This document shows positions 1,369 through 15,337 of a stretch of 15,337 nucleotides of DNA, in pieces. The notes below the pieces were generated by a model. That model had not been told where the DNA came from and searched no databases. It saw only the letters and a list, made by a program, of their open reading frames with translations. The first letter of the stretch is position 1, and each line of letters begins with the position of its first letter. The stretch comes from a virus (taxonomy: Duplodnaviria > Heunggongvirae > Uroviricota > Caudoviricetes), in the IMG/VR virus record IMGVR_UViG_2648501149_000017. One strand, 5' to 3'. The position numbers and the translations under genes are program-made.

Positions 1369-1444
1369 GCCGATATAGCTCAGTTGGTAGAGCAGCGCAT
1401 TCGTAATGCGAAGGTCGTAGGTTCGACTCCTATTATCGGCACCA
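1369..1444 (+). tRNA. thrW: tRNA-Thr (anticodon CGU)
   Basis: 76-nt sequence GCCGATATAGCTCAGTTGGTAGAGCAGCGCATTCGTAATGCGAAGGTCGTAGGTTCGACTCCTATTATCGGCACCA with cloverleaf arms, anticodon loop TTCGTAA and 3' CCA; sits downstream of proA as thrW does in E. coli. Confidence 0.93.
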
Positions 1445-1445
1445 T
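1427..1445 (+). repeat. attL core: 19-bp direct repeat (CTCCTATTATCGGCACCAT) formed by the tRNA 3' end
   Basis: Identical 19-mer recurs at 13848-13866; typical of tRNA-targeted integration by P4-type integrases. Confidence 0.8.
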
Positions 1446-1608
1446 CACCTAGTTTTCCCAAGTCAACCCACATCAACAAAATCATTTAAAAACATATATA
1501 TTACGTTATTTTCATACGTTTGAGGTCAACCCTTGTCTCTTGAAATCAACACGCGGTTGGGGGCACAATCAGGGGCATGTTCTGTTCGGTCTAGGAAATG
1601 TGCCCCCA

Positions 1609-2799
1609 ATGATGCTGAATGCCCGCAAGGTTGAAGCTGCGAAAGGAAAAGAGAAGAGCTACAAGCTGTTTGATGGAGGTGGCCTATACCTTCAGGTCGA
1701 ACCTAATGGCTCGCGTTACTGGCGTATGAAATACCGTTTTGCTGGTAAAGAGAAACGATTGTCCTTTGGTGTTTATCCAACAGTCACACTTGCTGATGCC
1801 AGACAAAAACGAGAAGACGCGAAGAAACTACTCGCAGCAGGTGAAGATCCCGGCGAAGTCAAAAAAGCCAAAAAGCAGGCTTTAAATGCAGCGATTGAGA
1901 CACTTAACCCATTCAGAGAAGTGGCGTTAGAGTGGCACAAAATGAAATCACCCAAATGGTCTGAGGGCTATGCTTCCGACATCATTGAGGCATTCGAGAA
2001 AGACATTTTCCCGCATATTGGGCACAGACCTATAGCTGATATTCAGCCCCTTGAACTGCTTGAAGTTCTGAGGTTGATAGAAGCTCGAGGCGCTATGGAG
2101 AAAGCGAAGAAAGTCCGTCAGCGATGCGGTGAAGTTTTTCGCTATGCCATCGTAACGGGTAGGGCAATCTACAATCCGGCACCGGATCTTGCCAGTGCGA
2201 TGCAAGGACATGAAGCAGTCCACTATCCATTCCTCAAAGCCAACGAACTACCGGAGTTCTTTAATGCCCTTAATTCTTATTCAGGAAGTCCAATTGTATT
2301 GTTGGGGGCGCATTTACTTATCCTGACAGGTCTACGAACTGGAGAACTACGAGCAGGTGAGTGGCGAGAGGTGGATTTTGATAATGCGGTGTGGGAGATC
2401 CCAAAAGAACGTATGAAAATGCGTAGGAGCCATATTGTCCCGTTGTCAAAACAAGCATTATCCCATCTCAAAAGTTTGAAAGAACTAACTGGGAACTACC
2501 CGCTGATGTTCCCTGGACGCAACGATCCTAGCAAATTTATGAGTGAAGCAAGCATTAATCAGGTGTTTAAACGTATTGGATATGCAGGGCGTGTTACGGG
2601 GCATGGTTTCAGGCATACGATGAGTACAATCCTACATGAGAAAGGATTTAACAGCGCTTGGATTGAAACCCAGCTTGCTCATTCGGACAAAAACTCTATT
2701 CGTGGAATTTATAACCATGCCCAATATCTCGAAGGGAGAAGAGAAATGATGCAATGGTATGCTAATTATTTATCTGAGCTAATTGGTACTCATAAATGA
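1609..2799 (+). CDS. int: P4-type tyrosine integrase
   Basis: N-terminal arm-binding-type region (KEKSYKLFDGGGLYLQVEPNGSRYWRMKYRFAGKEKRLSFGVYP) and C-terminal catalytic region with HGFRHT and a YNHAQY tyrosine segment. The listed ORF starts at a TTG at 1540; first ATG is at 1609 (tandem ATG ATG), which I take as the start. Confidence 0.92.
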   Translation: MMLNARKVEAAKGKEKSYKLFDGGGLYLQVEPNGSRYWRMKYRFAGKEKRLSFGVYPTVTLADARQKREDAKKLLAAGEDPGEVKKAKKQALNAAIETLNPFREVALEWHKMKSPKWSEGYASDIIEAFEKDIFPHIGHRPIADIQPLELLEVLRLIEARGAMEKAKKVRQRCGEVFRYAIVTGRAIYNPAPDLASAMQGHEAVHYPFLKANELPEFFNALNSYSGSPIVLLGAHLLILTGLRTGELRAGEWREVDFDNAVWEIPKERMKMRRSHIVPLSKQALSHLKSLKELTGNYPLMFPGRNDPSKFMSEASINQVFKRIGYAGRVTGHGFRHTMSTILHEKGFNSAWIETQLAHSDKNSIRGIYNHAQYLEGRREMMQWYANYLSELIGTHK

Positions 2800-3620
2800 A
2801 TATTTTAAAAATTAATAATACTGATTCTCTGCTCAGAGATTACTACCAGTTGGATGAAGCTTCAGAAAAAATTGGTTGTAGTGAAAAGGATATACTCTGG
2901 TTTGCCAGAGAACGAGATGTAGAGCTATGCATGGAATTCCATGATGATGAGTATGATGTTTCATGTGGTTTGAAGATTGATGGTCAAATGGATGAGTTCT
3001 TATCTAATCTGAAATATTTACCACGAGATAGAAATGGCAATATTATGTTGTCAGACTTAAGTTCTATAAGAATCCCTGATGAAGATAATTTAATTGATAA
3101 AAATGGTTTTATTCGATGTTTCATATCCGGTTTATGGGCTGTTGATTATGAATATAAAGATCTGTTAGTTAAGCATGAGGGGCAACCGGATTCTTGGCCT
3201 ATTCATTTTCTACTGGCGGGTACGCCTAATATAAATTGTAAGGTAATTCTTTATGTAAATTATGATGAAAAAGAAAATTATTATCTTTTTGAGGTTTTGT
3301 GGATTACAAAGGTACAGATTCAAAAATTCATTGATATAGTCTTATGCGAACAAAAGCGGATAAAAAACGCCAATAAATATAAATCACAATCTGAGGCGCA
3401 AAAACAAAAACATGCTGTTCCTCGAGCTGAAATACTCATGGCTATTATTTCGCTCTATCATCGTGATATGAGGCTAAGAAGAGAGAGTCCAGCAGCGATA
3501 GCTGATTATCTTTTTCAACATGCCAGTGAGTTCTGGCCTAAGACCGGAGAACCGCCTTTGAGCTATGATACTGTTGTTAGTTTGCTACGTAGTTGCATGA
3601 AAAACATTAAGTTTAACTAA
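2796..3620 (+). CDS. hypothetical protein (AT-rich, unknown function)
   Basis: 274-aa ORF whose ATG overlaps the integrase stop (ATGA), suggesting translational coupling; base composition is visibly more AT-rich than neighbouring core genes. No family recognised. Confidence 0.6.
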   Translation: MNILKINNTDSLLRDYYQLDEASEKIGCSEKDILWFARERDVELCMEFHDDEYDVSCGLKIDGQMDEFLSNLKYLPRDRNGNIMLSDLSSIRIPDEDNLIDKNGFIRCFISGLWAVDYEYKDLLVKHEGQPDSWPIHFLLAGTPNINCKVILYVNYDEKENYYLFEVLWITKVQIQKFIDIVLCEQKRIKNANKYKSQSEAQKQKHAVPRAEILMAIISLYHRDMRLRRESPAAIADYLFQHASEFWPKTGEPPLSYDTVVSLLRSCMKNIKFN

Positions 3621-3745
3621 ATATTAACAATTATTGTGGCTAATGATTTTGGATTTTTTTCATTAGTCACATTTTTCTCATTTATAACCTATGTTTTAAT
3701 TTTCCGTGTTGAAGCCAATAGACTTAGATAAACGGAGAATGATGA

Positions 3746-4036
3746 ATGTTATCTAAACATGATAATACTACTTTGCAACGACCTTCAATGGATTCTCTGA
3801 TCGATATGAAGTTTATTACTTCCGATTGTTTATTAAGTGATAAATGGATTTATCGATTGATTTCTCTGAATCGCTTTCCAAAACCTATAAAAATAGGTCG
3901 GATGTCACGATGGCGCGCTGCTGATTATTATAAGTGGCGAGATGGGTTTGAAGAAAACTCAGGTCAACATTTTGAGGGAATGAGAAATAAGGCAAGAGCA
4001 ATTAATAAAGGGAATAGATTATCACCTACTCCCTAA
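3746..4036 (+). CDS. alpA: AlpA-family (prophage CP4-57 regulatory protein-like) HTH transcriptional regulator / excision regulator
   Basis: Motif LLSDKWIYRLISLNRFPKPIKIGRMSRWRAADYYKW resembles the AlpA HTH signature (RFPKP.K.G ... W); RBS ACGGAG upstream. An internal ATG at 3788 is an alternative start. Confidence 0.78.
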   Translation: MLSKHDNTTLQRPSMDSLIDMKFITSDCLLSDKWIYRLISLNRFPKPIKIGRMSRWRAADYYKWRDGFEENSGQHFEGMRNKARAINKGNRLSPTP

Positions 4037-4068
4037 GCCTTAATTGATAGTTAGTAATATTTAACTGA

Positions 4069-4242
4069 TTAGCCTTTAGGGTCAATCCCGCGTGATTGGA
4101 GTTCTTTGCGTAAAATTCTTTTAATCCAAGTTGCCAACGCGCTATCTCCATCTTTGCGCATTTCGTTTTCGAGTTGCAACCTAAAATCGTCGGTAAGACG
4201 CATTTGGAATGGTGGAGAACGTTTCTCTTGTGGTGTTGACAT
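4069..4242 (-). CDS. Arc/MetJ-type ribbon-helix-helix DNA-binding protein (57 aa); not in the ORF track
   Basis: Minus-strand translation: MSTPQEKRSPPFQMRLTDDFRLQLENEMRKDGDSALATWIKRILRKELQSRGIDPKG; pattern of an N-terminal beta-strand (FQMRLTDDF) followed by two helices is Arc-like. Start codon overlaps a palindromic repeat. Confidence 0.65.
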   Translation of the reverse strand: MSTPQEKRSPPFQMRLTDDFRLQLENEMRKDGDSALATWIKRILRKELQSRGIDPKG

Positions 4243-4282
4243 GGTAATTACCCTAGAATATGATGACTACATGGTAATTACC
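4243..4282. promoter_or_regulatory. Two copies of the 10-bp perfect palindrome GGTAATTACC (4243-4252 and 4273-4282), each preceded by CAT; candidate operator
   Basis: Seen directly: CATGGTAATTACC occurs twice 30 bp apart, at the start codon and in the upstream region of the Arc-like gene, inside the divergent region shared with the icd-like operon. Confidence 0.5.
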
Positions 4283-4310
4283 ATTGTAAGTATAGTTCGC
4301 TTGTAAAAGC

Positions 4311-4345
4311 AATGCCCGATTGTGCGGGAACACAAATCGGGCATT
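4311..4345 (+). other. Perfect 11-bp inverted repeat (AATGCCCGATT / AATCGGGCATT) with 13-nt loop in the leader upstream of the icd-like gene
   Basis: Seen directly; lies 29 bp upstream of the ATG at 4374. No T-run follows, so not a classical intrinsic terminator; could be an operator or RNA structure. Confidence 0.45.
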
Positions 4346-4373
4346 TAACCAACCGTTATAAGAGGTAACGAAG

Positions 4374-4550
4374 ATGGCTAAACAGAAGTGTACCTGGTTA
4401 TTTGCGGCGATCAACCGCAGTCAACGCAATGCCTGTCCTGTGATGTTAAGGATCACCGCAGATAACGAGCGGTCAGCGCGGCGCAGACTTGCCCCGGACT
4501 ATGTACTGAGCTTTGCCGGGCGCATTCCCTGCGGAGGTGAACATGCGTAA
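4374..4550 (+). CDS. Icd-like host cell division inhibitor (58 aa); not in the ORF track
   Basis: Translation MAKQKCTWLFAAINRSQRNACPVMLRITADNERSARRRLAPDYVLSFAGRIPCGGEHA; the W.FAA ... RR.LAP ... LSFA.R.P pattern matches my recollection of P4 Kil/Icd-like proteins. RBS AGAGG upstream; stop overlaps the next ORF start. Confidence 0.65.
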   Translation: MAKQKCTWLFAAINRSQRNACPVMLRITADNERSARRRLAPDYVLSFAGRIPCGGEHA

Positions 4551-4902
4551 TTATCCGCACCCCGGCGAACGCTGGCAGCATGAACGTGGCTGGACGGTCA
4601 CGATTATCCGATTAATAGAAGCCTCGCCCTCTGTGGCGCTGGTTAATCCTGAATTCAGCTGTGAAGTGCTGATACGTCATGACAGCGACAACCAGCTTTC
4701 TTCCTGCCCTCTGGCATGGTTTGAACAGCGGTATACGCGCCTGTTTGATGTACCGCTCTTTAAGCCTGCACCAGCTCCTGCAGGCGGTAGTGGTTCCGGC
4801 CCGCTGACACTGCATCCGTCTGTGCTATTTATCCGCTGGCGGGAGCGTAGCATATGGCGTTCTGCTGAGCCTGACGACGGTCACTATTCAAAGTTTCTCT
4901 GA
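4543..4902 (+). CDS. hypothetical protein
   Basis: ORF with GGAGG RBS and ATG at 4543 (the listed ORF begins at an upstream TTG, 4513); contains a Pro/Gly/Ser-rich linker (KPAPAPAGGSGSGP). Family not recognised. Confidence 0.6.
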   Translation: MRNYPHPGERWQHERGWTVTIIRLIEASPSVALVNPEFSCEVLIRHDSDNQLSSCPLAWFEQRYTRLFDVPLFKPAPAPAGGSGSGPLTLHPSVLFIRWRERSIWRSAEPDDGHYSKFL

Positions 4903-4933
4903 CAAAATACCGCTGAAAACGGAGTAATCCACG

Positions 4934-5218
4934 ATGAATATTTCAAACGGGCACAACGGTGCTCAGGGCCACACTTTGCCTGAAAAACACAATACCGGTG
5001 CTTTTGCCTATGGGTTGTCAGAGGACAGTTTCGGAAAGCTGACCCGCGCAAGAAATGCCTGCGACATGCTCCAGCTTCTCTTTTCTGAATACCCGTCTCA
5101 GGCCGGAGCACTGGACGCTGGCTGTGCGCATGGTGTCGCCGCGCTGATGGAGTACCTGCTGGCAGATTTGACGGATATTGCACACAGTTGCGCACTGATT
5201 GAAGGAGGTGCCAGATGA
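4934..5218 (+). CDS. hypothetical protein
   Basis: 94-aa ORF with GGAG RBS; stop overlaps the next start (ATGA). No recognisable motif. Confidence 0.55.
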   Translation: MNISNGHNGAQGHTLPEKHNTGAFAYGLSEDSFGKLTRARNACDMLQLLFSEYPSQAGALDAGCAHGVAALMEYLLADLTDIAHSCALIEGGAR

Positions 5219-5598
5219 ACCAGCCGCAGGTTTCCATTTTCCCGGCAGAAATGACCACCGCGCTTTACCGGCGGGCTATTGCTTCAGCATGGCGGCAGAA
5301 AATGCTGAACGAAACTGGCAGTGATCAGTATGGTCCGCACAGCCTGACGGTGGAGCGTATTGAAATGGCCATTGCGCTGCATATCGAGTGCGTACTGATT
5401 AACGAGTACGGCGAAGTGCAGGGCGCCGCTACCGCGCTGGCACTGCTGACTGACATGCTGGAGCCGTCACTGCTGACCGCGCCGCCGGTACTGACCGCGC
5501 GCGGCTGTGAAGTGATGGCGGAGATGTACCGCACGCTTCCGGCGGCCTTTGATGACTTCTGCAGTACCGGTGTGACGTTGTATGAGGGGGAAGTATGA
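5215..5598 (+). CDS. hypothetical protein
   Basis: 127-aa ORF with AGGAGG RBS; translationally coupled on both sides (ATGA overlaps). Confidence 0.6.
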   Translation: MNQPQVSIFPAEMTTALYRRAIASAWRQKMLNETGSDQYGPHSLTVERIEMAIALHIECVLINEYGEVQGAATALALLTDMLEPSLLTAPPVLTARGCEVMAEMYRTLPAAFDDFCSTGVTLYEGEV

Positions 5599-8267
5599 CA
5601 ATACGGACGGTTACGCAGATTTCAGCCGCCGCACGGGGGAAATGGCCTGTTATTCTGCAGATGCTGCGTATTGATGTACCTGAAAACGGCAGGCACGGTC
5701 CCTGCCCGAAATGTGGGGGCAAGGATCGTTTTCGCCTTGATGACCTTGACGGGCGCGGGACGTGGATCTGCAGCCAGTGTGGCAATGGTGACGGTCTGGA
5801 TCTGGTTAAGCTCGTAACCGGTTACAGCGTCAGAAAGGCTGCGCAGGAGGTGGCGCAGGTGCTTAATGTGCCGGATGTGCAGGAACTGCCTGTTAAGCCT
5901 GCCAGACAAAAAGCCCCTAAACGAGACATGGGTCTTACCGTGGCGGCGCTGATGAAAGAGAGCCACACGGGAGAAAGTGCCTATCTGACAGGAAAAGGGT
6001 TCGCCGGATACCCGGCCTCTCTGACCGGAAGCGTGCAGCATATCAGCGGTAAGGATTTTCCTGCCGGTTCCCTGCTGTTACCACTCACGACCAACACCGG
6101 AGCCGTGACCGGTGCACAGCTTATCGCCCCGACGGGTGAAAAAAGCATACTGCCCGGCAGCACGATGAAAGGCGCGTTTGTGTCGCTCAGCCCGTTACCG
6201 TCTGAACCACCGGTACAGGTGGTGATTACCGAAGGTTACGCTACGGCGCTGACGGTAAGCCAGCTCACTGCCGGATGCGTAGTGGCTGCCATATCTGCGG
6301 GCAACCTGCCCAATGTGGCGCAGTCGCTGCGGGCACGCTGGCCTGAGGTAAAAATTATCATCGCCGGTGATAACGATTTTCAGGACGGGGGGGAGAATCC
6401 CGGCAGAGCCTTTGCTGAACGGGCGGCAAAAGCTGTTGGCGGCTGGATGACGCTGCCACCAGGAGAGATTAAGGCTGACTGGAATGACTTTCATCGGGAG
6501 CACGGTATTACCCGTGCCCGTGAAGCCTTTCGCAACGGTCTGGTACTGTGCGGGGAAGGCCGCACGCAACTGCCGCACGGGTTCCGTCTTACCCAGGAAT
6601 ATCTCTGGTATGAAAAGCAGGTACAGCGCAACGGTGAGACGGAGATCCAGAACGTCAAAATATGCAGCCCGCTGCGCGTGACGGCAATTACCTGCGATGC
6701 CGATGGCGGTAACTTCGGACGACTGCTGGAATGGGAAGATACGTGGGGTGAGTGTCGCCGCTGGGCGATGCCAATGGAAATGCTGAGCGGCAGTGGTGAG
6801 GAACTGCGCCGGGTACTGCTGGTTAACGGGCTGTCTTATATCAGCACCACCGGTGAGGCACGCGCACGCCTGATGGAATATATCTCACTGTGTAAACCGG
6901 AACGCCGCGTGACCTGCGTCAGTCGTACTGGCTGGCATGGTCAGGTTTACGTCCTGCAGGATGAGGTCAGCGGTGAAGGTGCAGAGGGTGTCATTCTCCA
7001 GACCACTTCCGTGCAGGGGCGTGATTTCCGCGTGTCGGGCACAACAGAGGAATGGCGGGAGCATGTATCCCGCTACTGTACCGGCAACTCCCGCGTGGCA
7101 TTTGCTGTCAGCCTGGCCTTTGCTGCACCACTGTTACGGCTGGTTGGTATGGACGGCGGCGGCTACCACCTCAAAGGGGAATCGACAGACGGTAAGACCA
7201 CCACCATGAAAGCGGCAACCTCCGTCTGCGGCGGGCCTGACTACTGGCAGACATGGCGGGCCACCGGCAACGCGCTGGAGGGATGCGCCAGCCGCCGTAA
7301 CGATGCCGCCATGATGCTTGATGAGATCCGGGAAGTTGACGGACGCGAGGCAGGCAATATCGCCTACATGCTGGCAAACGGTCAGGGCAAGGGCCGTGCC
7401 GGTACGGACGGTGAGCTGCGTACCCGTAAGCAGTGGCGCCTGTTGTTCTTTTCAACTGGCGAGTTGTCTCTGACCGAACATGCGGCAAAGGCCGGTGAGC
7501 GTACTTTTGCCGGGATGGAAGTCAGGATGATCCAGATCCCCAGCGATTCCGGGAAGTTTGGCGTTTTTGAGGAGCTGCACGGCTTCGACAGCGGCAAGGC
7601 TCTGGCAGAGCATCTTGAATGGGCCACGTCCTGCTACTACGGTTCGCCGTTCCGGGAGTGGCTGAAAGCACTGACCGCTGATCTTAACGGACTAACGGCA
7701 CAGGCAAAATCGCTGATGAAGGAATATGCTGCCGCCCTGACTCCGAAAGATGCAGGCAATCAGGTGGGCCGGGCTGTGAACCGCTTTGCACTGGTGGCGA
7801 TGGCAGGTGAACTGGCAACCCGTCTGGGTATCACCGGCTGGCCTGAGGGTGAAGCACTGCGGGCAACCCGCGTCTGCCTGAACGCATGGCTGAAAGATCG
7901 CGGGCACACCGCCAATCAGGAAGATATCGCCGCACTGGAGCAGGTTCGCAGTTTCTTTACCGCGAATCAGTACAGCCGCTTTGCAGACTGGTATGACGAG
8001 CGCAACCGCCCCGGCAATATGGTGGGCTGGCGCAGGGTGGAGAAAGGCAGTACCGCGCAGGGCACGGAAGCTGTCACTACGTTCTATGTCATGCCGTCCG
8101 GCTGGAAAGAAATCTGCAGGGGATTTGACCCGCGCAAGGTGGCGCGTCTGTGCGCAGATCGTGGATACCTGCTGCCCTCCACTGATGGCAAACTCCAGAC
8201 AACCATTCGCCCGCCAGAGATGAATCCCCGCAGGCTCTATGTCTTCAACAGCGAGGTGCCGGGTTAA
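5595..8267 (+). CDS. P4 alpha-type bifunctional DNA primase / P-loop NTPase (helicase-like)
   Basis: N-terminal zinc ribbon (CPKCGG ... CSQCG), TOPRIM motifs (ITEGYATAL ... IAGDND), then a P-loop domain with Walker A-like GESTDGKTT and Walker B-like MMLDE. Confidence 0.92.
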   Translation: MTIRTVTQISAAARGKWPVILQMLRIDVPENGRHGPCPKCGGKDRFRLDDLDGRGTWICSQCGNGDGLDLVKLVTGYSVRKAAQEVAQVLNVPDVQELPVKPARQKAPKRDMGLTVAALMKESHTGESAYLTGKGFAGYPASLTGSVQHISGKDFPAGSLLLPLTTNTGAVTGAQLIAPTGEKSILPGSTMKGAFVSLSPLPSEPPVQVVITEGYATALTVSQLTAGCVVAAISAGNLPNVAQSLRARWPEVKIIIAGDNDFQDGGENPGRAFAERAAKAVGGWMTLPPGEIKADWNDFHREHGITRAREAFRNGLVLCGEGRTQLPHGFRLTQEYLWYEKQVQRNGETEIQNVKICSPLRVTAITCDADGGNFGRLLEWEDTWGECRRWAMPMEMLSGSGEELRRVLLVNGLSYISTTGEARARLMEYISLCKPERRVTCVSRTGWHGQVYVLQDEVSGEGAEGVILQTTSVQGRDFRVSGTTEEWREHVSRYCTGNSRVAFAVSLAFAAPLLRLVGMDGGGYHLKGESTDGKTTTMKAATSVCGGPDYWQTWRATGNALEGCASRRNDAAMMLDEIREVDGREAGNIAYMLANGQGKGRAGTDGELRTRKQWRLLFFSTGELSLTEHAAKAGERTFAGMEVRMIQIPSDSGKFGVFEELHGFDSGKALAEHLEWATSCYYGSPFREWLKALTADLNGLTAQAKSLMKEYAAALTPKDAGNQVGRAVNRFALVAMAGELATRLGITGWPEGEALRATRVCLNAWLKDRGHTANQEDIAALEQVRSFFTANQYSRFADWYDERNRPGNMVGWRRVEKGSTAQGTEAVTTFYVMPSGWKEICRGFDPRKVARLCADRGYLLPSTDGKLQTTIRPPEMNPRRLYVFNSEVPG

Positions 8268-8293
8268 GGCTTTGCGTGAGTCTTATTTATTAA

Positions 8294-8488
8294 GGGTAAC
8301 AGGTGAAACAGGTGGAACAACCGTATTTTACAGGGCTGAATCTGTTCCACCTTCTGAAATAGTGAGGTGGAACAGATGTAACGCCAGCCAATCCGCTGTT
8401 CCACCTTGTTACCCGCGATGTTCCACCGGTGCAGTGTATATAAATGCTTTATAAAACAAATGGGTAACACATGTTTCACCTGTTACAC
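8294..8488. repeat. Iteron cluster (putative replication origin, P4 ori/crr-like)
   Basis: At least seven copies in both orientations of TGTTCCACC / TGTTTCACC (8302-8310, 8311-8319, 8343-8351, 8366-8374, 8397-8405, 8419-8427, 8472-8480) plus GGGTAACA / TGTTACCC variants (8294-8301, 8407-8414, 8462-8469, 8481-8488), immediately downstream of the primase gene. Confidence 0.7.
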
Positions 8489-8576
8489 CGCATCAGGGAC
8501 ATAAAGCAGACTGAAACAGAGGGCATTTTTATCTGGCTGGCTTTCATAGCCACGTCTGAATAACCGCAAGCGCCCG

Positions 8577-8641
8577 TTGTACCAGCCACCACACACTGAG
8601 CACCGATAGTGTGCTTGTGTCAGCCACGACACAATTGACGT
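8577..8641 (+). promoter_or_regulatory. Psid-like late promoter with two TGT-N12-ACA dyads (Ogr/Delta activator sites)
   Basis: TGT-N12-ACA at 8577-8594 and 8615-8632, centres 38 bp apart, upstream of the sid-like ATG at 8668. Matches the P2/P4 late-promoter architecture as I recall it (sites near -55 and -18), which would put the transcription start near 8641. Confidence 0.5.
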
Positions 8642-8667
8642 AACGAACCAACCCGACAGGAGAAGTC

Positions 8668-9411
8668 ATGAACAACACCGCAGTGAATAACAACCTTTCC
8701 ACTTTTCCGGCTGTAACGCAGCGGGCACTGGAAACCATGAACACAGCCAGAAACGCATGGCTTGAAGCACGTCGTCAGCAGAAAGCGGCAGCGGATAATA
8801 TTGCGACAATCCGCCAGCGTCGCGCTGAAATGGAAGCCACGACGAACACACTGAATGAGGAGTGGCGCACGCTGTTTCGTGAAAGTCAGGGCGTGGTCTC
8901 AAAGGAAATGAAAAAACTGCGCACGGAAATTGCGCTGGGACGAGAAACTCTTGAGGATTTTGATGAGCTGCTGGAGGCTCAGGAAAGCGAAAATGCACTT
9001 TTGCCGCAGAAAGCTGCGGAATTAGCCGGAAAGTATATCCACGCGCATAACATCCTTGTGGATATTCGCGCAAAACAAATCTGGGAAGATTTTATGCAGT
9101 CGCATGGAAAAGCGCTTATTCAGACGCTGAGCCTGCTTAAATCCACAATGGGCCGGGAAGCCAGTGCCGTTGTGGGTGTGGTGAATTCAGTTAATGACCC
9201 GGACACAGTGCTGAAAGACTTTATTCATAAACATATCACCAGACCGGCTCTGGCTAACGATGCGATGCCTGAGCAGGACCCGGTGTTTAAACTGGCGGGA
9301 GTTGCCCCGGATTATGCGGCGCGTCTGGATTTCAGTAATCAACTCTCTCCGGCAGCTATGCATAAAATTAAGGTTCGTCAGGAACTTGCTGAGAAGGAGA
9401 AAGCAGTATGA
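8668..9411 (+). CDS. Sid-like capsid size determination (external scaffold) protein
   Basis: 247 aa, similar in length to P4 Sid; the segment EEWRTLFRESQGVVSKEMKKLRTEI matches my recollection of a conserved Sid region; sits directly upstream of psu-like and delta-like genes. AGGAGA RBS. Confidence 0.65.
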   Translation: MNNTAVNNNLSTFPAVTQRALETMNTARNAWLEARRQQKAAADNIATIRQRRAEMEATTNTLNEEWRTLFRESQGVVSKEMKKLRTEIALGRETLEDFDELLEAQESENALLPQKAAELAGKYIHAHNILVDIRAKQIWEDFMQSHGKALIQTLSLLKSTMGREASAVVGVVNSVNDPDTVLKDFIHKHITRPALANDAMPEQDPVFKLAGVAPDYAARLDFSNQLSPAAMHKIKVRQELAEKEKAV

Positions 9412-9959
9412 CGGCCCGAGGCACGCCTGACCAGGCACTTACCAGTTTTCGGAATGCCCGTATTCTGTGGGCCGGACATAATGAGAGCCGAAAAGCCGTT
9501 GAACAACAGATAACATCTCTCCTCGCTGCCACAGAAAAACCAGCAGATTATGCCCGACAGCTCGAATTACTGCGGGAACGTCTGGATGTGCTGAAATGGC
9601 AAATTAACTGTGCTGCGCGCGAATGCATTTACTCGCAGCATTTACTGATGGAGGCCTGCACAGAAGCCGCTCTCAGCAATTTTATGCAGGCGAATGGGGC
9701 AGCCCTGACATCTGCACTGGCTCCGTTCCTGAAGGGGCGCGGAGGGGTTGACGTTGCGTCCCGTATATTACGCAGTGCTCTGGTTCGCCAGCTGGCAATA
9801 ACACCGCCTGAAATTGCCGGGGATTATCGTGAGATCCTGGATGAATCCGGTTTGATGCCTGACCCCGGGATGATTCGTGATTGCCAGGGTTCTTACACCC
9901 CGGCACAACATCTGCGTTTTCAGCAACGCCTGAATGACATTAACGATATACAGGAGTGA
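9408..9959 (+). CDS. Psu-like polarity suppression protein
   Basis: 183 aa, close to P4 Psu in length; segments ALTSALAPFL and YTPAQ resemble recalled Psu motifs; translationally coupled to the sid-like gene (ATGA overlap). Confidence 0.6.
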   Translation: MTARGTPDQALTSFRNARILWAGHNESRKAVEQQITSLLAATEKPADYARQLELLRERLDVLKWQINCAARECIYSQHLLMEACTEAALSNFMQANGAALTSALAPFLKGRGGVDVASRILRSALVRQLAITPPEIAGDYREILDESGLMPDPGMIRDCQGSYTPAQHLRFQQRLNDINDIQE

Positions 9960-9964
9960 TATTA

Positions 9965-10237
9965 ATGGCACTTAAATGTCCGGAATGCGGTACAGTTGCA
10001 CACGCCAGAACAGCAGCCTATGAAGCTCCGTCAGTTAAACGCTCGTGGTATCAGTGCCAGAATCTGGAATGTTCCTGCACATTTACGGCACTGGAGAGTG
10101 TGGATAAGATAATCATGAAACCCCGGCGCAATGAACAGCTATCAGACAAAGCACAATCCCCGGAAAAACAACAGCAAACGCTCAATCGCTATGGCTCCGC
10201 GTCAAAACTGTCAAGCCGTCAGCAGATTCCTGTCTGA
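9965..10237 (+). CDS. Ogr/Delta-family zinc-finger late transcription activator
   Basis: MALKCPECGTVAHARTAAY ... WYQCQNLECSCTF matches the Ogr signature (C.C.HART ... Y.C.N..C). The listed ORF starts at a GTG at 9956; the ATG at 9965 with AGGAG RBS is the more likely start. Confidence 0.85.
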   Translation: MALKCPECGTVAHARTAAYEAPSVKRSWYQCQNLECSCTFTALESVDKIIMKPRRNEQLSDKAQSPEKQQQTLNRYGSASKLSSRQQIPV

Positions 10238-10257
10238 TTAGAAAAAAACGCCCACGT

Positions 10258-10285
10258 AATCCCGGTCGAGTACCGGGATTTTTAA
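10258..10285 (+). terminator. Rho-independent terminator downstream of the delta-like gene
   Basis: Perfect 9-bp stem AATCCCGGT / ACCGGGATT with 5-nt loop followed by a T-run. Confidence 0.6.
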
Positions 10286-10312
10286 CACCTTTTCCCTGGC
10301 TGGCCTGAGAGC

Positions 10313-10420
10313 GCATGAGTGCATGTCTATGGCGCATGAAAATGCATGAGCCTTATGCACCTTTTTTGAGGCGAAAACCTTTGTGTGGTGGTATCTGAGA
10401 CGATTTATGGCATGCATGAA
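10313..10420. repeat. Cluster of GCATGA(A/G) motifs
   Basis: GCATGA at 10313-10318, 10334-10339, 10343-10348 and 10415-10420, with GCATG variants at 10321-10325 and 10411-10415, in the non-coding stretch between the late genes and the cargo cassette. Confidence 0.4.
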
Positions 10421-10766
10421 AACCAGTCTGTTAAGCGAAGCGGGCAGGCGTGCGGGGCTGCCCGCGATAGCACTGAAATCAACAGGTAAAACTATTTTTT
10501 ATTAGTAGTGTAAACTGGGAGCGAACGGACTCTGTCATGCTGTATCATCCTGTAATGATCAATCTCACTGGTGTCTGTATAGATGTCAACCAGTTTCGAC
10601 GGCTGTGTCTAACTTAAAATTAGAGCTTAATCAAGTTTTTCCTCGAGAATACTTTTAAAAGACAATGAGTTATGAGAAAGTGGAGGCTGTCACGTTGGTC
10701 ATATGTAACACTCCACGTAATCTTAATCGCTTTGTAAATGTTGAAGTTAATTAATAGGGAAAACTG

Positions 10767-11726
10767 ATGCTAACCAGGGCTGAAAATATAAGAAAAATCA
10801 CAAGCTATTTAGCTATTCTCTCAAGAGAGGTTGAGATTAGTGCCTCCCTCAATCTTTTGGATATCAACGTTCAAGCGGAATCTTTTTATAGAGATTTCTT
10901 AAACTTATGTTATGGATATAATTTAAGAAATACCAATAGTGAAGAGCAAAACTACCAAGCAATAGATCTTGCTGATGAAGATCGGAAGATTGCTATACAA
11001 GTAACTTCAACTTCTGACTTGGGAAAAATTAAGAATACAGTTGATGGATTTATAAAAAGTAAGCAATATGAAAAATATGATAGACTAATTGTACTGAATA
11101 TAACTGAAAAGAAAAAGCACAGATTGAAAGAGTATGGAATAGCCGGGTGCTATGTAATTAATATCAAAGATGATGTATGGGATTATAAGGATATAATTAG
11201 AAAGATAAACGATTTGAATGATTGTGATATATCAACAATATGCTCATTTTTGGAACGTAATATTAATACTAAAGCTGCTGATAAACCGCCGAAAGAAGTC
11301 ACAACTATGTTTGCGATGATTGAATTATTGAGTGATGATGCTCACCCATTGGCAGGAAATGGATTTATTGAAGAGCCTAATCCTGAAAATAAAATATATA
11401 AAAGATTTTCAGATTATTCAGAGCGGTTGATTGGCTTATATACTGGGTTAGCTCCATTATATAGTGGGATATTTAAGTCAATAAAAGAACAGAGCGATAT
11501 TGGTATCGTAAGGTACCAAAAGATGAGTTTGTATTTAGAGTCATTTAGTGATAAGGTCTTAAGAAGCCATGGTGGAGATCCTATCTTGGCGCTTAATTAT
11601 TTAAAAGAATATTTTTCTAAACAACTGAGCCAGAGAAATGTAGATTACGATGAAACAGCTATCAAATTTTTCTTAATTGAGAATTTAATTGCATGTAACG
11701 TCTTTCCTAATTCGGAGATTCTTTGA
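10767..11726 (+). CDS. cargo protein with SMEK-like N-terminal domain (putative effector of a three-component ABC-ATPase system)
   Basis: 319 aa, AT-rich; the N-terminal segment LNLLDINVQAESFYRDFLNLCYGYNLRNTN ... QAIDLADEDRKIAIQVTSTS resembles what I recall as the SMEK domain found in conflict systems. AGGGA RBS. Assignment is from memory, not a search. Confidence 0.55.
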   Translation: MLTRAENIRKITSYLAILSREVEISASLNLLDINVQAESFYRDFLNLCYGYNLRNTNSEEQNYQAIDLADEDRKIAIQVTSTSDLGKIKNTVDGFIKSKQYEKYDRLIVLNITEKKKHRLKEYGIAGCYVINIKDDVWDYKDIIRKINDLNDCDISTICSFLERNINTKAADKPPKEVTTMFAMIELLSDDAHPLAGNGFIEEPNPENKIYKRFSDYSERLIGLYTGLAPLYSGIFKSIKEQSDIGIVRYQKMSLYLESFSDKVLRSHGGDPILALNYLKEYFSKQLSQRNVDYDETAIKFFLIENLIACNVFPNSEIL

Positions 11727-11974
11727 TGTTAAGTTTTTTTTCGAAAGATGAGGATTTGACAAAATCCCCTCCTGTTGTAGGGGCTAAAATTCTTAATTTA
11801 TTTGACGAAACAAAAAAAGAAAAAATTAGTATTTTCGATTTAGCAAAAGAATTAAAGAAAAACAACTCTCTAGGAGTGCGTGCAATTTATTTTGGAATGG
11901 TCTTTCTTTATACTCTTGATCTTATCGATTTCGATGAGCCATATGTGATAAATAAAAATGTTAAGAATAAATAA
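11726..11974 (+). CDS. small middle-component protein (about 82 aa) of the three-gene cassette
   Basis: ATG at 11726 overlaps the upstream stop (TGATG); the listed ORF begins at a TTG at 11723. Its 3' end overlaps the ATPase gene by 17 nt. Size and position between effector and ATPase fit an ABC-three-component middle component or a Lamassu LmuC-like protein. Confidence 0.55.
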   Translation: MLSFFSKDEDLTKSPPVVGAKILNLFDETKKEKISIFDLAKELKKNNSLGVRAIYFGMVFLYTLDLIDFDEPYVINKNVKNK

Positions 11975-13673
11975 ACTATATAGCATACCAGAATCTTTTG
12001 AGCCAGTAAGCTTTGATAGTGGCATCAATATCATCTTAGGTGAAAAAGATGTTTCATCTAACAAAACTAATGGAGTGGGTAAAACTCTTTTAATAGAGTT
12101 TATTAATTTTTGTTTATTAAAAGAATTTAAGTCGAGTAGAGTTTCTAAAATTCCTCATTCTGATTTTTCGAAAGACATTTTGATATGCCTTGATTTTAAT
12201 ATTGATAATATTAACATTATATCCCAGCGTTCTATTGGGAAACATAATGAGCCAACACTTGTAATAAATGGAAAAACAATAGAGTTTAGTGGATTAGATG
12301 ATGCGTTATCTCATTTAAGCAATCTTATCTTTAAGAATAGTAAGGGTATACTTCATCCATCATTTAGAGCGATGCTGGGGCCTCTGATACGCGATGAACG
12401 ATCTGAATTTAAATCTATTGTTGAGTGCTTCGACACAAAATTACATATACCTGCTGACTATACTCCTCATCTTTATTTGTTAGGTATTGATATTGCTCCC
12501 TATAAAGAGGCAAAGATTTTACAACGAGAAATAGATGATTTATCAACTACAAAAAATAAAATAAAGAGAGATATTGAATTTCTGACGGGAAAAAAAATTA
12601 GTTCTGCAAAGGCAGAGGTTAATGATCTTAAATCAAAAGTTGAACATATCAGAAACGCTATGGATGCATTTGATAGCGATAGCAGTTATGAACTTATCAA
12701 AGATGAAGTAGAAGAATTAGAAAGTTCTTTAGAAGAGTTGCGGAATAAAAGAACAATACTTAAGTTAGAGCTTTCAAGAATAAATGCTCTCGTTGGTGAA
12801 GTATACATAAATGATGATGAAGTGGTTGAAATTTATAATAAATTTAAAGTTGGATTAGGTGATGCTATCAAAAAAGAACTTAATGATGTTATTTCATTTA
12901 AGAAAAAAATAGATCACTTCCAAAACACTTTGTTAAATACGCGAAAAGAAACATTACTTTCTGAATTGCGTAAGATATCAGATAAGCTATATACAGTAAA
13001 TAGACTTTATAAAGAAAAAGCTAGTGTTTTTGAGCAGGCGGGGGGGTTTAAAAGCCTGAAAATTTTAATAATGACTTATCAGAAAAAGTTAGAGGAGTAT
13101 TCACAGTTATCTTCATTGCTTAAAAAATTTGAAGATTTCGATTCTAAATGGAAAGTTAAGAAGTCAGAACGCTCTTCTATGATAATTTCGTTAGATCTTT
13201 CTATTATGGATAACGAAAAAACGATTGAATCTTTTGAGGAAACCATTTTATCAATCCATGAATATGTTTTTGGAAATAGAAAGTGTTCTTTCGAAATTAA
13301 GGCGACAGAGAAGAAAGAAACTATCTCAATGGATTTAAGAATTGATGATGACGGTAGTCATAGTAATGAGCGAGAAAAGGTTTTCTTTTATGATTTGGCT
13401 CTTTTACTTACAGAAGAAACGTTTCGACGTCACCCTGGATTATTAATTCATGATAATATTTTTGATGTGGATCAAGATACATTAATTAAAAGCTTGAATT
13501 ATTTGGCAGAGAAATCCAGTTGCTTAAATGATGCACAATATATTTTGACGTTAAATAGCGACAAAATTAGTGAAATTGATAAAAGAGATTTGAAACTAGA
13601 TATTAACTTCTATAAGCGAGCTTCGTTAACTAAAATAAATAGATTCCTGGGAAGGCATTATCAAGAAATATAA
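11958..13673 (+). CDS. ABC/SMC-like ATPase (Lamassu LmuB-like / ABC-three-component ATPase)
   Basis: 571 aa; N-terminal head with P-loop (INIILGEKDVSSNKTNGVGKTLLIEF), long charged probable coiled-coil middle (many E/K heptad-like stretches), C-terminal Walker B / D-loop-like LLIHDNIFDVDQD. Confidence 0.65.
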   Translation: MLRINKLYSIPESFEPVSFDSGINIILGEKDVSSNKTNGVGKTLLIEFINFCLLKEFKSSRVSKIPHSDFSKDILICLDFNIDNINIISQRSIGKHNEPTLVINGKTIEFSGLDDALSHLSNLIFKNSKGILHPSFRAMLGPLIRDERSEFKSIVECFDTKLHIPADYTPHLYLLGIDIAPYKEAKILQREIDDLSTTKNKIKRDIEFLTGKKISSAKAEVNDLKSKVEHIRNAMDAFDSDSSYELIKDEVEELESSLEELRNKRTILKLELSRINALVGEVYINDDEVVEIYNKFKVGLGDAIKKELNDVISFKKKIDHFQNTLLNTRKETLLSELRKISDKLYTVNRLYKEKASVFEQAGGFKSLKILIMTYQKKLEEYSQLSSLLKKFEDFDSKWKVKKSERSSMIISLDLSIMDNEKTIESFEETILSIHEYVFGNRKCSFEIKATEKKETISMDLRIDDDGSHSNEREKVFFYDLALLLTEETFRRHPGLLIHDNIFDVDQDTLIKSLNYLAEKSSCLNDAQYILTLNSDKISEIDKRDLKLDINFYKRASLTKINRFLGRHYQEI

Positions 13674-13847
13674 GTGTTAATCATTTAAATCAAGATTTTT
13701 ATAAAAGATATTTGTTAGTTAAACCCCCACTCTAGCTTGATGCCGTTTGTTTTAATGCATATCGCTGATTGGGGGCATTTTTGGGGGTATTTTGTTTGCA
13801 TCAAAAATAAAAAATCTTTATTTTCAAAGTGATAGTTTGGTTAATGG

Positions 13848-13866
13848 CTCCTATTATCGGCACCAT
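13848..13866 (+). repeat. attR core: second copy of the 19-bp repeat CTCCTATTATCGGCACCAT
   Basis: Exact repeat of the tRNA 3' end (1427-1445); only the tRNA 3' terminus is duplicated, not a full tRNA. Confidence 0.8.
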
Positions 13867-14019
13867 TCTAACGTCTCCCCAAGTCTACTCAAGTATTTAA
13901 AAACCTCTTATAATCAGTATATTAATGCCCCTTTTAGTCTTTTGACGTCTATTTAAGTACCCCAAACTCTACAAGCAATTGAGGGGATTTGCTGTTCAGT
14001 TTAGTGGAGATACCCCCAA

Positions 14020-14358
14020 GTGAAACTCAATGCCCGTCAAATAGACACTGCCAAGCCAAAAGAGAAGGCTTACAAGTTGGCTGATGGTGGTGGTCTGTAC
14101 CTCCTGGTAAAACCTGGTGGAGGAGAATATTGGCGTCTCAAGTATCGTGTAGCTGGTAAAGAGAAGCTGTTAGCACTAGGTGTGTATCCTGAGGTCACCT
14201 TAGCTGATGCTCCTGCAAAACTTGAAGAAGCTAAAAGAGGTATCTCTGGGGGAATCGATCTGATGGAAGTGAAGCGAGAGGAAAAGATTGCCCGGGAAAC
14301 GCAGTTAAACAACACCTTCAAAGATATTGCCCTTGAGTGGCACAGTAACAAATTATAA
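14020..14358 (+). pseudogene. Truncated P4-type integrase (N-terminal 112 aa only)
   Basis: Translation KLNARQIDTAKPKEKAYKLADGGGLYLLVKPGGGEYWRLKYRVAGKEKLLALGVYPEVTLADA aligns with the N-terminus of the intact integrase at 1609, then stops long before the catalytic domain; preceded by an upstream region resembling that of the intact int (CCCAAGTC, TTTAAAAAC). Confidence 0.8.
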
Positions 14359-14792: not shown

Positions 14793-14826
14793 TCAATTAA
14801 CATCAATTAACATCAATTAACATTAA
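14793..14826. repeat. Tandem 10-bp repeat TCAATTAACA x3 (plus partial copy)
   Basis: Seen directly at the 3' end / stop codon of the minus-strand MarR-like gene. Confidence 0.5.
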
Positions 14827-15337
14827 GGTTTGATAATAATTTTTTGTTGGCGAGTTCAAATGTTTTCATTTCATCATCTGATAGCCCGCTCCAGATTTTC
14901 TTTAGCATTACATTTTGAGTGTTTATTAGTTTTTGAGCAAGTGTAACTCCGTCAGGGGTTAAGCAAATACTTTTGCTTCGACGATCGTTTTTATTATTAA
15001 TTCTTTTGGCAATATTCTTTTTTTCTAATTTGTCTATGATGTGTGTGATGTTTGTTTTGGAGAATTGTAACTCCTTGTAAATATCAGAAGGGGACTGGCA
15101 ATAATCATCAGACATATATAATGAAACTAACACCATAAATGTTGAAGTGTTTATTCTATACTCGCTCAATTCATTTTCTATAATACTCTGGATTTTGTCA
15201 TTTACTCTAATATATAAGTGTATTAACAGACTCTCCTGAGCCGGGTATGCCGGATTTTTGATTTTTTTGTAGTTTGTTATAGTTTTTAATAAATCTATAT
15301 TATTCATAATTCCACCACACGGCAAAAGAAAACTCAT
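14813..15337 (-). CDS. MarR/SlyA-family transcriptional regulator (PapX-like small regulator)
   Basis: About 165-174 aa with a central winged-helix-like region (SPSDIYKELQFSKTNITHIIDKLEKKNIAKRINNKNDRRSKSICLTPDG) typical of MarR-family proteins; AT-rich. The ORF reaches the window edge; the start is either the ATG at the very end (15337) or the internal ATG at 15307 (MNNIDLL), or lies outside the window. Confidence 0.75.
   Translation of the reverse strand: MSFLLPCGGIMNNIDLLKTITNYKKIKNPAYPAQESLLIHLYIRVNDKIQSIIENELSEYRINTSTFMVLVSLYMSDDYCQSPSDIYKELQFSKTNITHIIDKLEKKNIAKRINNKNDRRSKSICLTPDGVTLAQKLINTQNVMLKKIWSGLSDDEMKTFELANKKLLSNLNVN

Follow-up and report, generated by a model that had tools for sequence, protein, structure and literature searches.

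A probable P4-family phage satellite, intact-looking and carrying a putative defense cassette, at the thrW gene of Escherichia coli

The DNA analyzed here, referred to throughout as the window, is a 15,337-nucleotide stretch of a Caudoviricetes record in IMG/VR (IMGVR_UViG_2648501149_000017). Positions 1446-13866 very probably represent a single integrated P4-family phage satellite, 12.4 kb long and intact-looking, seated at the 3' end of the tRNA gene thrW. The locus is the E. coli proA-thrW region, with proA at 1-1254 upstream of thrW, and RefSeq genomes with 99% identical DNA show the order frsA-crl-phoE-proB-proA-tRNA-Thr. All satellite genes lie on the plus strand except one, an Arc-like gene on the minus strand (Table 1). 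A first-pass annotation made from the sequence alone had described a P4-like satellite at this site; its claims are taken up below where the evidence bears on them.

Precise insertion at the thrW core

The 19-mer CTCCTATTATCGGCACCAT occurs exactly twice in the window (1427-1445 and 13848-13866, both on the plus strand), with no further copy in the window at up to two mismatches, and none of 200 dinucleotide-preserving shuffles of the window yielded a match to it. ARAGORN and Rfam both place a tRNA-Thr with anticodon CGT at 1369-1444, so that the first copy covers the final 18 tRNA bases and one base beyond. The identity between the two copies extends over exactly 19 bp, and the bases flanking both junctions differ. 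Repeat search, shuffles and tRNA placement thus confirm the direct repeats that the first-pass annotation had placed at the ends of the element.

Comparison with strains having an empty thrW site, which that annotation had proposed, gives a clear outcome. Two constructed 800-bp junctions were searched in 5426 complete E. coli genomes. The first, thrW joined to window positions 13867-14266, runs without interruption in 706 genomes, Nissle 1917 among them, with identity reaching 100%; the second, thrW joined to the LysR'/paoD flank as in strain VG12A2, is uninterrupted in 948 and corresponds to a fully empty site. In both sets the junctions fall exactly at the core. Of the 5426 genomes, only 61 carry the 9-kb backbone (1446-10460) in full. 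Because of these unoccupied junctions and the patchy backbone, the segment 1446-13866 was inserted precisely at the 19-bp core and is not vertically inherited sequence.

Two ways in which the first-pass annotation had said it could be wrong are thereby ruled out: that the 19-mer is a common chromosomal sequence (the window has two copies only, and no shuffle matched it), and that the block is vertically conserved backbone (the unoccupied junctions and the backbone count exclude it). We give no credence to the combined alternative of a coincidental or generic repeat around a stretch of inherited chromosome, which faces both the shuffles and the 1654 genomes without the block, as well as a GC content that moves from 50-60% to 28-36% across the modules. 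Since the 19-mer belongs to a conserved tRNA, one copy per genome is to be expected, and no support for coincidence was found.

The right flank carries a second layer of history. A truncated integrase, with 55% identity to P4 Int at its N-terminus, and the MarR-type gene vatX follow the satellite, and in strain MS1266 the same flank runs on to vat, an IS1 remnant, a second integrase fragment and yagU. A vat/vatX island at thrW is already known (PMC6592367). Because the right flank is this island, the satellite sits between thrW and an older, decayed vat island, and its attR doubles as the attL of the island. The host E. coli therefore already had the decayed vat island at thrW before the satellite arrived. 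The vat/vatX island and CP4-6 share with the satellite both the attachment site at thrW and an integrase of P4 type; unlike the satellite, which is complete and was inserted later, they are decayed, with truncated integrases and insertion sequence remnants, and hold no satellite genes.

P4-type gene complement

The backbone follows P4 (NC_001609) in its parts. Alignment with P4, also proposed by the first-pass annotation, gives protein identities of 43% for Int (blastp; the catalytic residues R, HxxR, H and Y line up with those of P4), 38% for the primase domain (blastp; residues 5-316 only), 40% for the homologue of orf106, 24% for Sid (blastp; E = 3e-11), 30% for Psu and 45% for Delta. The P4-like label stands through the homology of Int, the primase domain, the DUF5375 protein, Sid, Psu and Delta. 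It does not extend to close relationship: identities are only 24-45%, and the whole element, run by megablast against 50,697 phage records, returned no match.

The integrase claimed at the left end is present with its Pfam domains, and is read from ATG 1609, as in RefSeq; the longest open reading frame (ORF) opens at TTG 1540. Arm-type sites adjoin both att cores and fit the P4 consensus on both arms, the P4 repeats TTGGGGGCACAT and ATGCCCCCAA having been taken from NC_001609. The replicase (890 aa) corresponds to the alpha-primase of the first-pass annotation. As in P4, a DUF5375 gene is followed by a Zn-ribbon/Toprim primase, and phrog_2249/510 is common to both proteins, though the helicase module is of another family: the C-terminal part is a DUF927 helicase of the type found in Rep of Staphylococcus aureus pathogenicity islands (SaPI) and Cch of the staphylococcal cassette chromosome mec (SCCmec) (PDB 8tch, 5dgk).

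The claimed iterons are likewise present. They are octamer-like, as in P4, lie in the putative replication origin (8296-8489), and resemble the P4 type-1 iteron, TGTTCACC. Iterons of the form GGTGTAACA/TGTTACACC lie at the same place (15290-15480) in a Pantoea sp. element from a metagenome-assembled genome (L007; JASGDM010000100.1, 8309-20585), which has the same 15-gene architecture at tRNA-Sec and is called the Pantoea relative below. Between the two hosts the 9-mer changes at one position (GGTGGAACA in E. coli versus GGTGTAACA in Pantoea) despite 91% identical replicases, a change that is a candidate origin-specificity switch. An ORF at 8239-8454 was rejected as a gene; it overlaps the iterons and is absent from the RefSeq annotation.

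The late operon agrees with P4 in geometry. Two TGT-N12-ACA dyads presumably correspond to the Delta-binding sites of P4 Psid, and the dyads of the window, at 8578 and 8616, are 38 bp apart, the second lying 52 bp upstream of the sid ATG. In P4 the dyads at 9493 and 9531 and the ATG at 9583 give identical spacing and distance, and the Pantoea relative keeps the geometry (dyads at 15567 and 15605, ATG at 15658). The sid-, psu- and delta-like genes claimed downstream are all present. Translational coupling, another point of the first-pass annotation, is seen as four-base ATGA-type start/stop overlaps at int/orf274, orf94/DUF5375, DUF5375/primase, sid/psu, psu/delta and between the first two cargo genes.

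Two side observations concern this operon. Directly 3' of delta, at 10246-10285, a hairpin (CCCGGT-CGAG-TACCGGG) is followed by ATTTTT; it looks like an intrinsic terminator of the late operon, and a simple terminator scan did not list it. Furthermore, many close relatives (L018-L030, with a ∼92% identical backbone) have no psu (window 9386-9952), so that sid is nearly joined to delta; they fit the published 'Psu-less' Type B variants.

Table 1. Features of the window. Strand is given as + or -, and as a point where a feature has no single strand.
Feature	Coordinates	Strand	Basis
thrW, tRNA-Thr(CGU), integration target	1369-1444	+	ARAGORN; Rfam tRNA 71.8 bits; RefSeq context proB-proA-tRNA-Thr
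attL core, 19-bp direct repeat regenerating the tRNA 3' end	1427-1445	+	Repeat search; empty-site junctions
Integrase arm-type sites TTGGGGGCA (1557) and TGCCCCCAA (1601)	1557-1609	.	Match to annotated P4 attP arm repeats
int, tyrosine integrase	1609 (or 1540)-2799	+	Pfam Arm-DNA-bind_3, Phage_int_M, Phage_integrase; blastp
orf274, accessory gene coupled to int	2796-3620	+	ORF overlap; low GC
AlpA/Vis-like helix-turn-helix protein, 96 aa, candidate excisionase/regulator	3746-4036	+	Pfam, PHROG, blastp
Arc-like ribbon-helix-helix protein, 57 aa, candidate immunity repressor	4069-4242	-	phrog_228 E = 0.003; RefSeq annotation
Early promoter, TTGACA-17-TATGAT	4236-4264	+	11/12 promoter match
Two 14-bp putative operators, ACATGGTAATTACC, at 4239 and 4269	4239-4282	+	Exact direct repeat
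Leader hairpin between promoter and icd-like gene	4309-4352	.	Minimum free energy fold; outer and inner stems kept in the Pantoea relative
Icd-like small protein, 58 aa, first early-operon gene	4374-4550	+	phrog_1743; RefSeq name
orf119, conserved	4543-4902	+	phrog_30862
orf94, conserved	4934-5218	+	phrog_14861; dN/dS about 0.3
DUF5375 protein, homologue of P4 orf106 (gene before alpha)	5215-5598	+	PF17345; identity to P4 orf106
Replicase, Zn-ribbon and Toprim primase fused to DUF927 helicase	5595-8267	+	Pfam; blastp; PDB
Seven 9-bp iterons, GGTG(G/A)AACA / TGTT(C/T)CACC, both orientations	8302-8480	.	Repeat search
Psid-like activator sites, two TGT-N12-ACA dyads	8578-8633	+	Motif geometry versus P4
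Sid-like capsid size-determination protein	8668-9411	+	phrog_6165 E = 8e-93
Psu, capsid decoration / Rho inhibitor	9408-9959	+	PF07455 E = 1e-44; phrog_6366
Delta, single Ogr/Delta zinc-finger activator	9965 (or 9956)-10237	+	PF04606 E = 1e-15
cos-like packaging region	10318-10468	+	Collinear with Cartapus and P4 cos; conserved among cargo variants
Cargo gene 1, effector with a SMEK domain (Mrr-like restriction-endonuclease fold), 319 aa, LmuA-like	10767-11726	+	PF21941 E = 5e-46
Cargo gene 2, small middle component, 83 aa, LmuC/MC6-like	11723-11974	+	Sub-threshold PF20293
Cargo gene 3, YydD/DUF2326 SMC-Rad50-like ABC ATPase, coiled coil, 571 aa, LmuB-like	11958-13673	+	PF10088
Integrase arm-type sites TTGGGGGCA (13769) and TTGGGGGTA (13781), other attP arm	13769-13789	+	blastn match to P4 attP arm repeats
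attR core; also left junction (attL) of older vat island	13848-13866	+	Repeat search; junction comparison
Truncated integrase, 112 aa, arm-binding domain only, outside satellite	14020-14358	+	Pfam; RefSeq pseudogene annotation
vatX, MarR-type, outside satellite	14813-15337	-	RefSeq, vat downstream; PMC6592367

P4 and the published P4-like family (Moura de Sousa & Rocha 2021/2023; Rousset et al. 2022) have in common with the element a tyrosine integrase that targets a tRNA gene and shares the arm-site consensus, the DUF5375-primase pair, iterons of the octamer-like kind, Sid, Psu and Delta or their homologues, the Psid dyad geometry, a cos or cos-like region beside a variable defense hotspot that reaches the att/int junction, and a size of ∼12 kb. 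SatelliteFinder defines P4-like satellites by seven components, a type with 6/7 being Type B (PMC10085698). Integrase, Psu, Sid, Delta and the Alpha primase/helicase are present in the element and Epsilon/Ash was not detected; counting the weak AlpA-like match as the AlpA-type (or MerR/Stl) regulator, the element would be Type B with 6/7 components. The late-promoter hallmark, a Delta/Ogr-responsive geometry before sid, is found as well. In the broad published sense the element is a member of the P4-like family, of a divergent lineage.

It is highly improbable that the block is instead a different satellite or mobilizable island, for instance of the type of phage-inducible chromosomal islands (PICI), that resembles P4 superficially. 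An int, an AlpA-like regulator and a primase-replicase do form the PICI core too, SatelliteFinder classes typical P4-like satellites as Type C PICI (PMC10085698), and the nearest relatives of the DUF927 helicase are SaPI Rep and SCCmec Cch. However, sid, psu, delta, a P4-type Psid and a P2-family cos-like region beside a hotspot are none of them PICI features, and Pfam, PHROG and PADLOC scans detected no capsid-morphogenesis or terS/rpp-type genes among the window ORFs.

A cos-like region bordering a variable hotspot

Downstream of the late operon lies a region collinear with the annotated putative cos, homologous to that of P2, of the Peduoviridae phage Cartapus. The match comprises a first block, GTGCATGTCTATGGCGCATGAA, at 21/22 positions, a second, GCATGAAAACCA, and a third, AAGCGGGCAGGCGTG, continuing into CGGGG. 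Within it, a GCATGA-rich flank is followed by AAGCGGGCA and then by GGCGTGCGGGGCTGCCCGC, and the cargo starts directly after this 19-nt block. P4 aligns here with AAAGCGGGCG joined to GGCGAGGCGGGGAAAGCAC, against GAAGCGGGCA joined to GGCGTGCGGGGCTGCCCGC in the window. In ten sister elements (from RefSeq and IMG/VR) the cos sequence is invariant to ∼19 nt past the predicted nick, after which the elements diverge completely, and the region is conserved across at least 8 cargo variants. This conservation suggests that the cos-like region would serve as the packaging site. The IMG/VR loci matched were predicted as prophages on isolate genomes or on contigs of metagenomes, so these records are uninformative on packaging.

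Against strain MS1266, homology ends at 10461 and restarts exactly at the attR core, at 13847. Since homology stops after cos and resumes at the attR core, the cos-to-att segment is a replaceable cassette, in accordance with the cos-adjacent variable hotspot already described for P4-like satellites (PMC9122126; PMC8628076). Sister backbones of at least 98% identity carry at this position Drt3a/b, a type II-A retron, a PDC-M38A/AbiL-like ATPase, a DzbB-like protein, or an S8 peptidase with an AAA ATPase.

Departures from P4 and a possibly rewired control region

Several departures from P4 weigh against the assignment of the element as a working P4-family satellite. The first concerns immunity and derepression. 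P4 epsilon belongs to PF25738, which matches no window ORF; blastp of the window ORFs for epsilon/Ash is also negative, and hhalign against epsilon gives probabilities of 1.6% for orf94 and 0.15% for orf119, that is, no relation. Rfam recovers the C4 immunity RNA (74.9 bits), isrK and c4-a1b1 on P4, whereas C4/CI RNA, isrK and c4-a1b1 are found by Rfam in neither the window nor nine relatives. The helicase part of P4 alpha carries D5_N, DUF5906 and Pox_D5, not DUF927. The alpA-like gene of the first-pass annotation exists, but its assignment is weak: the protein scores 20.6 bits against PF05930, where the cut-off is 21, beside an excisionase match (phrog_66/2790, E = 1.6e-6) and 32% local identity over 41 aa to P4 orf88/Vis. 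Finally, the cos core is unusual. The core GGCGTGCGGGG is one G short of the GGCG(A/T)GGCGGGG of P2, P4, Cartapus and the Pantoea relative (whose canonical core is GGCGTGGCGGGGGTACGAG), and the right half is also divergent in the E. coli lineage. The canonical P2/P4 cohesive-end 19-mer is absent from the window with up to three mismatches allowed. A search of the cos 16-mer in IMG/VR returned sister satellites and unrelated chance matches and no helper, no phage in INPHARED or IMG/VR has the cos variant of the window, and distant blastn of the cos region gave only short cos-flank matches to Elveevirus phages.

Other differences lie in arrangement. The late genes run sid-psu-delta, whereas P4 has sid-delta-psu; the element Delta has one Ogr/Delta domain and P4 Delta two; the att site, at thrW, is on the other side of int, while P4 uses leuX; and the cos core reads GGCGTGCGGGGCTGCCCGC as opposed to GGCGAGGCGGGGAAAGCAC in P4.

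In the place where P4 has its RNA-based control, the element carries the Arc-like gene, which is transcribed divergently from the early operon, together with the putative operators. In the early promoter, these repeats overlap both its -35 box and its start region. The promoter and both putative operators recur almost base-for-base in the Pantoea relative (region 11049-11300), and the Arc-like protein is 89.5% identical there, with neighboring genes at 55-70%. This arrangement suggests protein-based repression of the early operon by the Arc-like protein. A TTG-initiated ORF at 4106-4306, possibly the alpA of the earlier reader, was rejected; RefSeq annotates the opposite-strand Arc-like gene there.

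The early operon opens with the icd-like gene that the first-pass annotation had named, whose product is 52% identical to the C-terminal part of a P4 ORF annotated 'cI'. On the minus strand at 4308-4379, the region gives a sub-threshold SymR-like match (Rfam symR, 31.6 bits versus a gathering score of 61), in which a strong hairpin is followed by GCTTTT. The match lies opposite the ribosome-binding site and start codon from which the icd-like gene is translated, and may represent either a leader attenuator or an antisense RNA acting in cis. The next gene, orf119, may be a remote homologue of P4 orf151 (hhalign probability 29%, E = 5.7e-4).

Between int and this region lies orf274, with a GC content of 33-38%. 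A set of 5.8 billion proteins yields only 18 clusters of homologues; these are confined to Enterobacterales and follow int wherever context was seen. It has no family match, and a confident AlphaFold2 (AF2) model gave no fold match beyond weak MerR/winged-helix pieces; the protein probably contains helix-turn-helix/winged-helix modules. It is IS1-disrupted in VG12A2 and shortened in MS1266.

A SMEK-type cargo cassette

The hotspot of the window is filled by three coupled genes (10767-13673), which begin right after cos, make up about a quarter of the element and have a GC content of 28-36% as opposed to 50-60% for the core; the first-pass annotation did not mention them, nor did it name the cos-like site, orf274, the Arc-like gene or the truncated integrase right of attR. 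The product of gene 1 has an N-terminal SMEK domain (SMEK_N) and a C-terminal domain, and matches both the PADLOC model Aga_REase and the Mrr nuclease domain of a short prokaryotic Argonaute (pAgo) partner (PDB 26bh_D, E = 7.5e-15). Gene 2 matches PF20293 (MC6) weakly (E = 3.5e-4; 20.9 bits, below the cut-off of 27.2); its position and size fit, and its Pantoea orthologue also gives a weak MC6 match. Gene 3 encodes a DUF2326 ATPase related to the SMC (structural maintenance of chromosomes) and Rad50 proteins of the ATP-binding cassette (ABC) type. It matches the PADLOC candidate family PDC-M68B (E = 1.4e-48), and its Walker A motif, GVGKT, is invariant.

The AF2 model of gene 3 (20 homologues, pLDDT 83.6) finds Bacillus subtilis YydD as its closest Foldseek match (E = 6e-25), followed by Lamassu LmuB (chains 9uxh_F and 9hqu_A, E = 3e-13 to 1e-11). 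Sequence searches count against this assignment, as PADLOC LmuB hidden Markov models (HMMs), phmmer and a 20-sequence profile against PDB were all negative; it is therefore fold comparison only that ties gene 3 to YydD and LmuB. A 2025 preprint folds ABC-3C into Lamassu and lists SMEK among short-Lamassu effectors (bioRxiv 10.1101/2025.04.02.646746). Given the SMEK fold, the ATPase fold and this effector list, the cassette is read as a putative ABC-3C/short-Lamassu-type defense system with a restriction-endonuclease-fold effector.

The likeness to Lamassu and ABC-3C (Krishnan et al. 2020; Haudiquet et al. 2025, the latter on short Lamassu with a SMEK effector) and to B. subtilis YydB-D covers the order of effector, small candidate middle component and SMC-like ATPase, the N-terminal SMEK/Mrr-like nuclease domain of the first protein, the location in a defense hotspot, and a ∼570-aa ATPase with a GVGKT Walker A, a coiled coil and a YydD/LmuB-like predicted fold. 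Unlike Lamassu, the ATPase is missed by the PADLOC LmuB HMMs and matches PDC-M68B, its Walker B reads LLIHDN where hhhhD[Q/S/T/E] has been published, and the middle component is a sub-threshold MC6. The cassette most likely would protect the host, and hence the satellite, through nuclease activation upon sensing phage DNA structures. It is found in 3 of the 5426 complete E. coli genomes, always within this satellite at thrW, and in one further IMG/VR isolate-genome contig.

Selection, recombination and mobility

The intact ORFs of the first-pass annotation are borne out: all 12 backbone ORFs are full length and without stop codons by comparison with a 91%-identical relative (L029). Ratios of nonsynonymous to synonymous substitution (dN/dS) against this relative range in the backbone from 0.03 (primase) to 0.34 (orf119), with 0.05 for int, 0.08 for the Arc-like gene, 0.09 for orf274 and 0.19 for sid; across comparisons orf119 gives 0.17-0.34. 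These genes are under purifying selection. The Pantoea relative, at 50-91% amino-acid identity, includes both an orf274 homologue and a SMEK-middle component-DUF2326 cargo, so cargo and backbone appear to have diverged together across genera.

Comparison with sister copies points to a more recent exchange. From 2971 onward (2971-13867) the satellite is 99.94% identical between the window and VG12A2, while the proA-thrW-int segment (1-2979) is 98.4% identical and the right flanks differ, a pattern in keeping with recent horizontal movement or recombination. With other sister elements the shared span is only 4314/4348-10460, and their int and regulator modules differ. The shift in identity against VG12A2 and the span shared by the sisters place recombination breakpoints near 2975 and 4314-4348. 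Together, these comparisons favor an active family over a remnant in decay.

The main competitor to a mobile satellite is a P4-derived island that can no longer be transferred, domesticated as a defense island and kept for its Lamassu-like cargo in the manner of CP4-6 and the vat island. Such an outcome is unlikely, but it has points in its favor: the one-base deletion and divergent right half that set the cos core apart from all P2-family cos sites examined, the failure to find a phage with the same core in INPHARED or IMG/VR, the lack of an epsilon gene to derepress a resident helper, the demonstrable decay of the neighboring thrW islands, and the IS1 in orf274 of one sister copy together with the loss of psu in close relatives. 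Set against these, every ORF is intact and purifying selection extends to sid, psu, delta, the primase and int; the operators, iterons, Psid dyads and arm sites are conserved out to the Pantoea relative. Furthermore, the cos variant recurs in at least 8 sister elements that differ in cargo and integrase, and this implies continuing spread and cargo exchange, and near-identity of the satellite in two strains with less similar left flanks and different right flanks tells the same way. Given its complete parts and purifying selection, it is plausible that the satellite is still mobilizable by a P2-like helper, as the first-pass annotation had suggested, the unusual cos core being the caveat.

Proposed life cycle

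From these features, a life cycle may be proposed. Int, acting on the P4-type arm sites and probably aided by the AlpA/Vis-like protein, would integrate and excise the element at the 19-bp core. During quiescence the Arc-like protein, bound to the two operators, would silence the operon running from the icd-like gene to the primase. After activation, the Toprim-DUF927 primase-helicase would replicate the excised circle from the iteron origin just 3' of its own gene. Delta, or the Ogr of a helper, would then switch on sid-psu-delta through the two TGT-N12-ACA sites, and Delta would also activate the late genes of a helper, putatively of the P2 family (Peduoviridae). Sid and Psu would redirect capsid assembly of this helper, whose terminase would package the element from the cos site.

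Implications for the P4-like family

P4-like satellites, their integration at tRNA genes and their cos-adjacent defense hotspots are already well documented, and the element is therefore one more example rather than a new principle. Its specialist interest lies in the SMEK-type Lamassu cargo, the putative protein-based control region with an odd cos core, and the orphan orf274. The cargo would be a rare hotspot example of a SMEK-nuclease short-Lamassu/ABC-3C system, and one easily cloned. The locus also displays tandem occupation of thrW beside the vat virulence island of Nissle-type strains and extraintestinal pathogenic E. coli (ExPEC).

More tentatively, and as a possibility to which we give less than even weight, the element may stand for a distinct P4-family branch in E. 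coli and Pantoea whose control and replication have been rewired, with an Arc-like repressor, a DUF927 helicase, no epsilon and the odd cos core. If so, this branch would sense and exploit its helper by another route, possibly a helper of an unrecognized type, and orf274 could take part. A widespread P4-like lineage without detected RNA immunity or epsilon, and with another helicase and cos core, bears on how satellites recognize their helpers.

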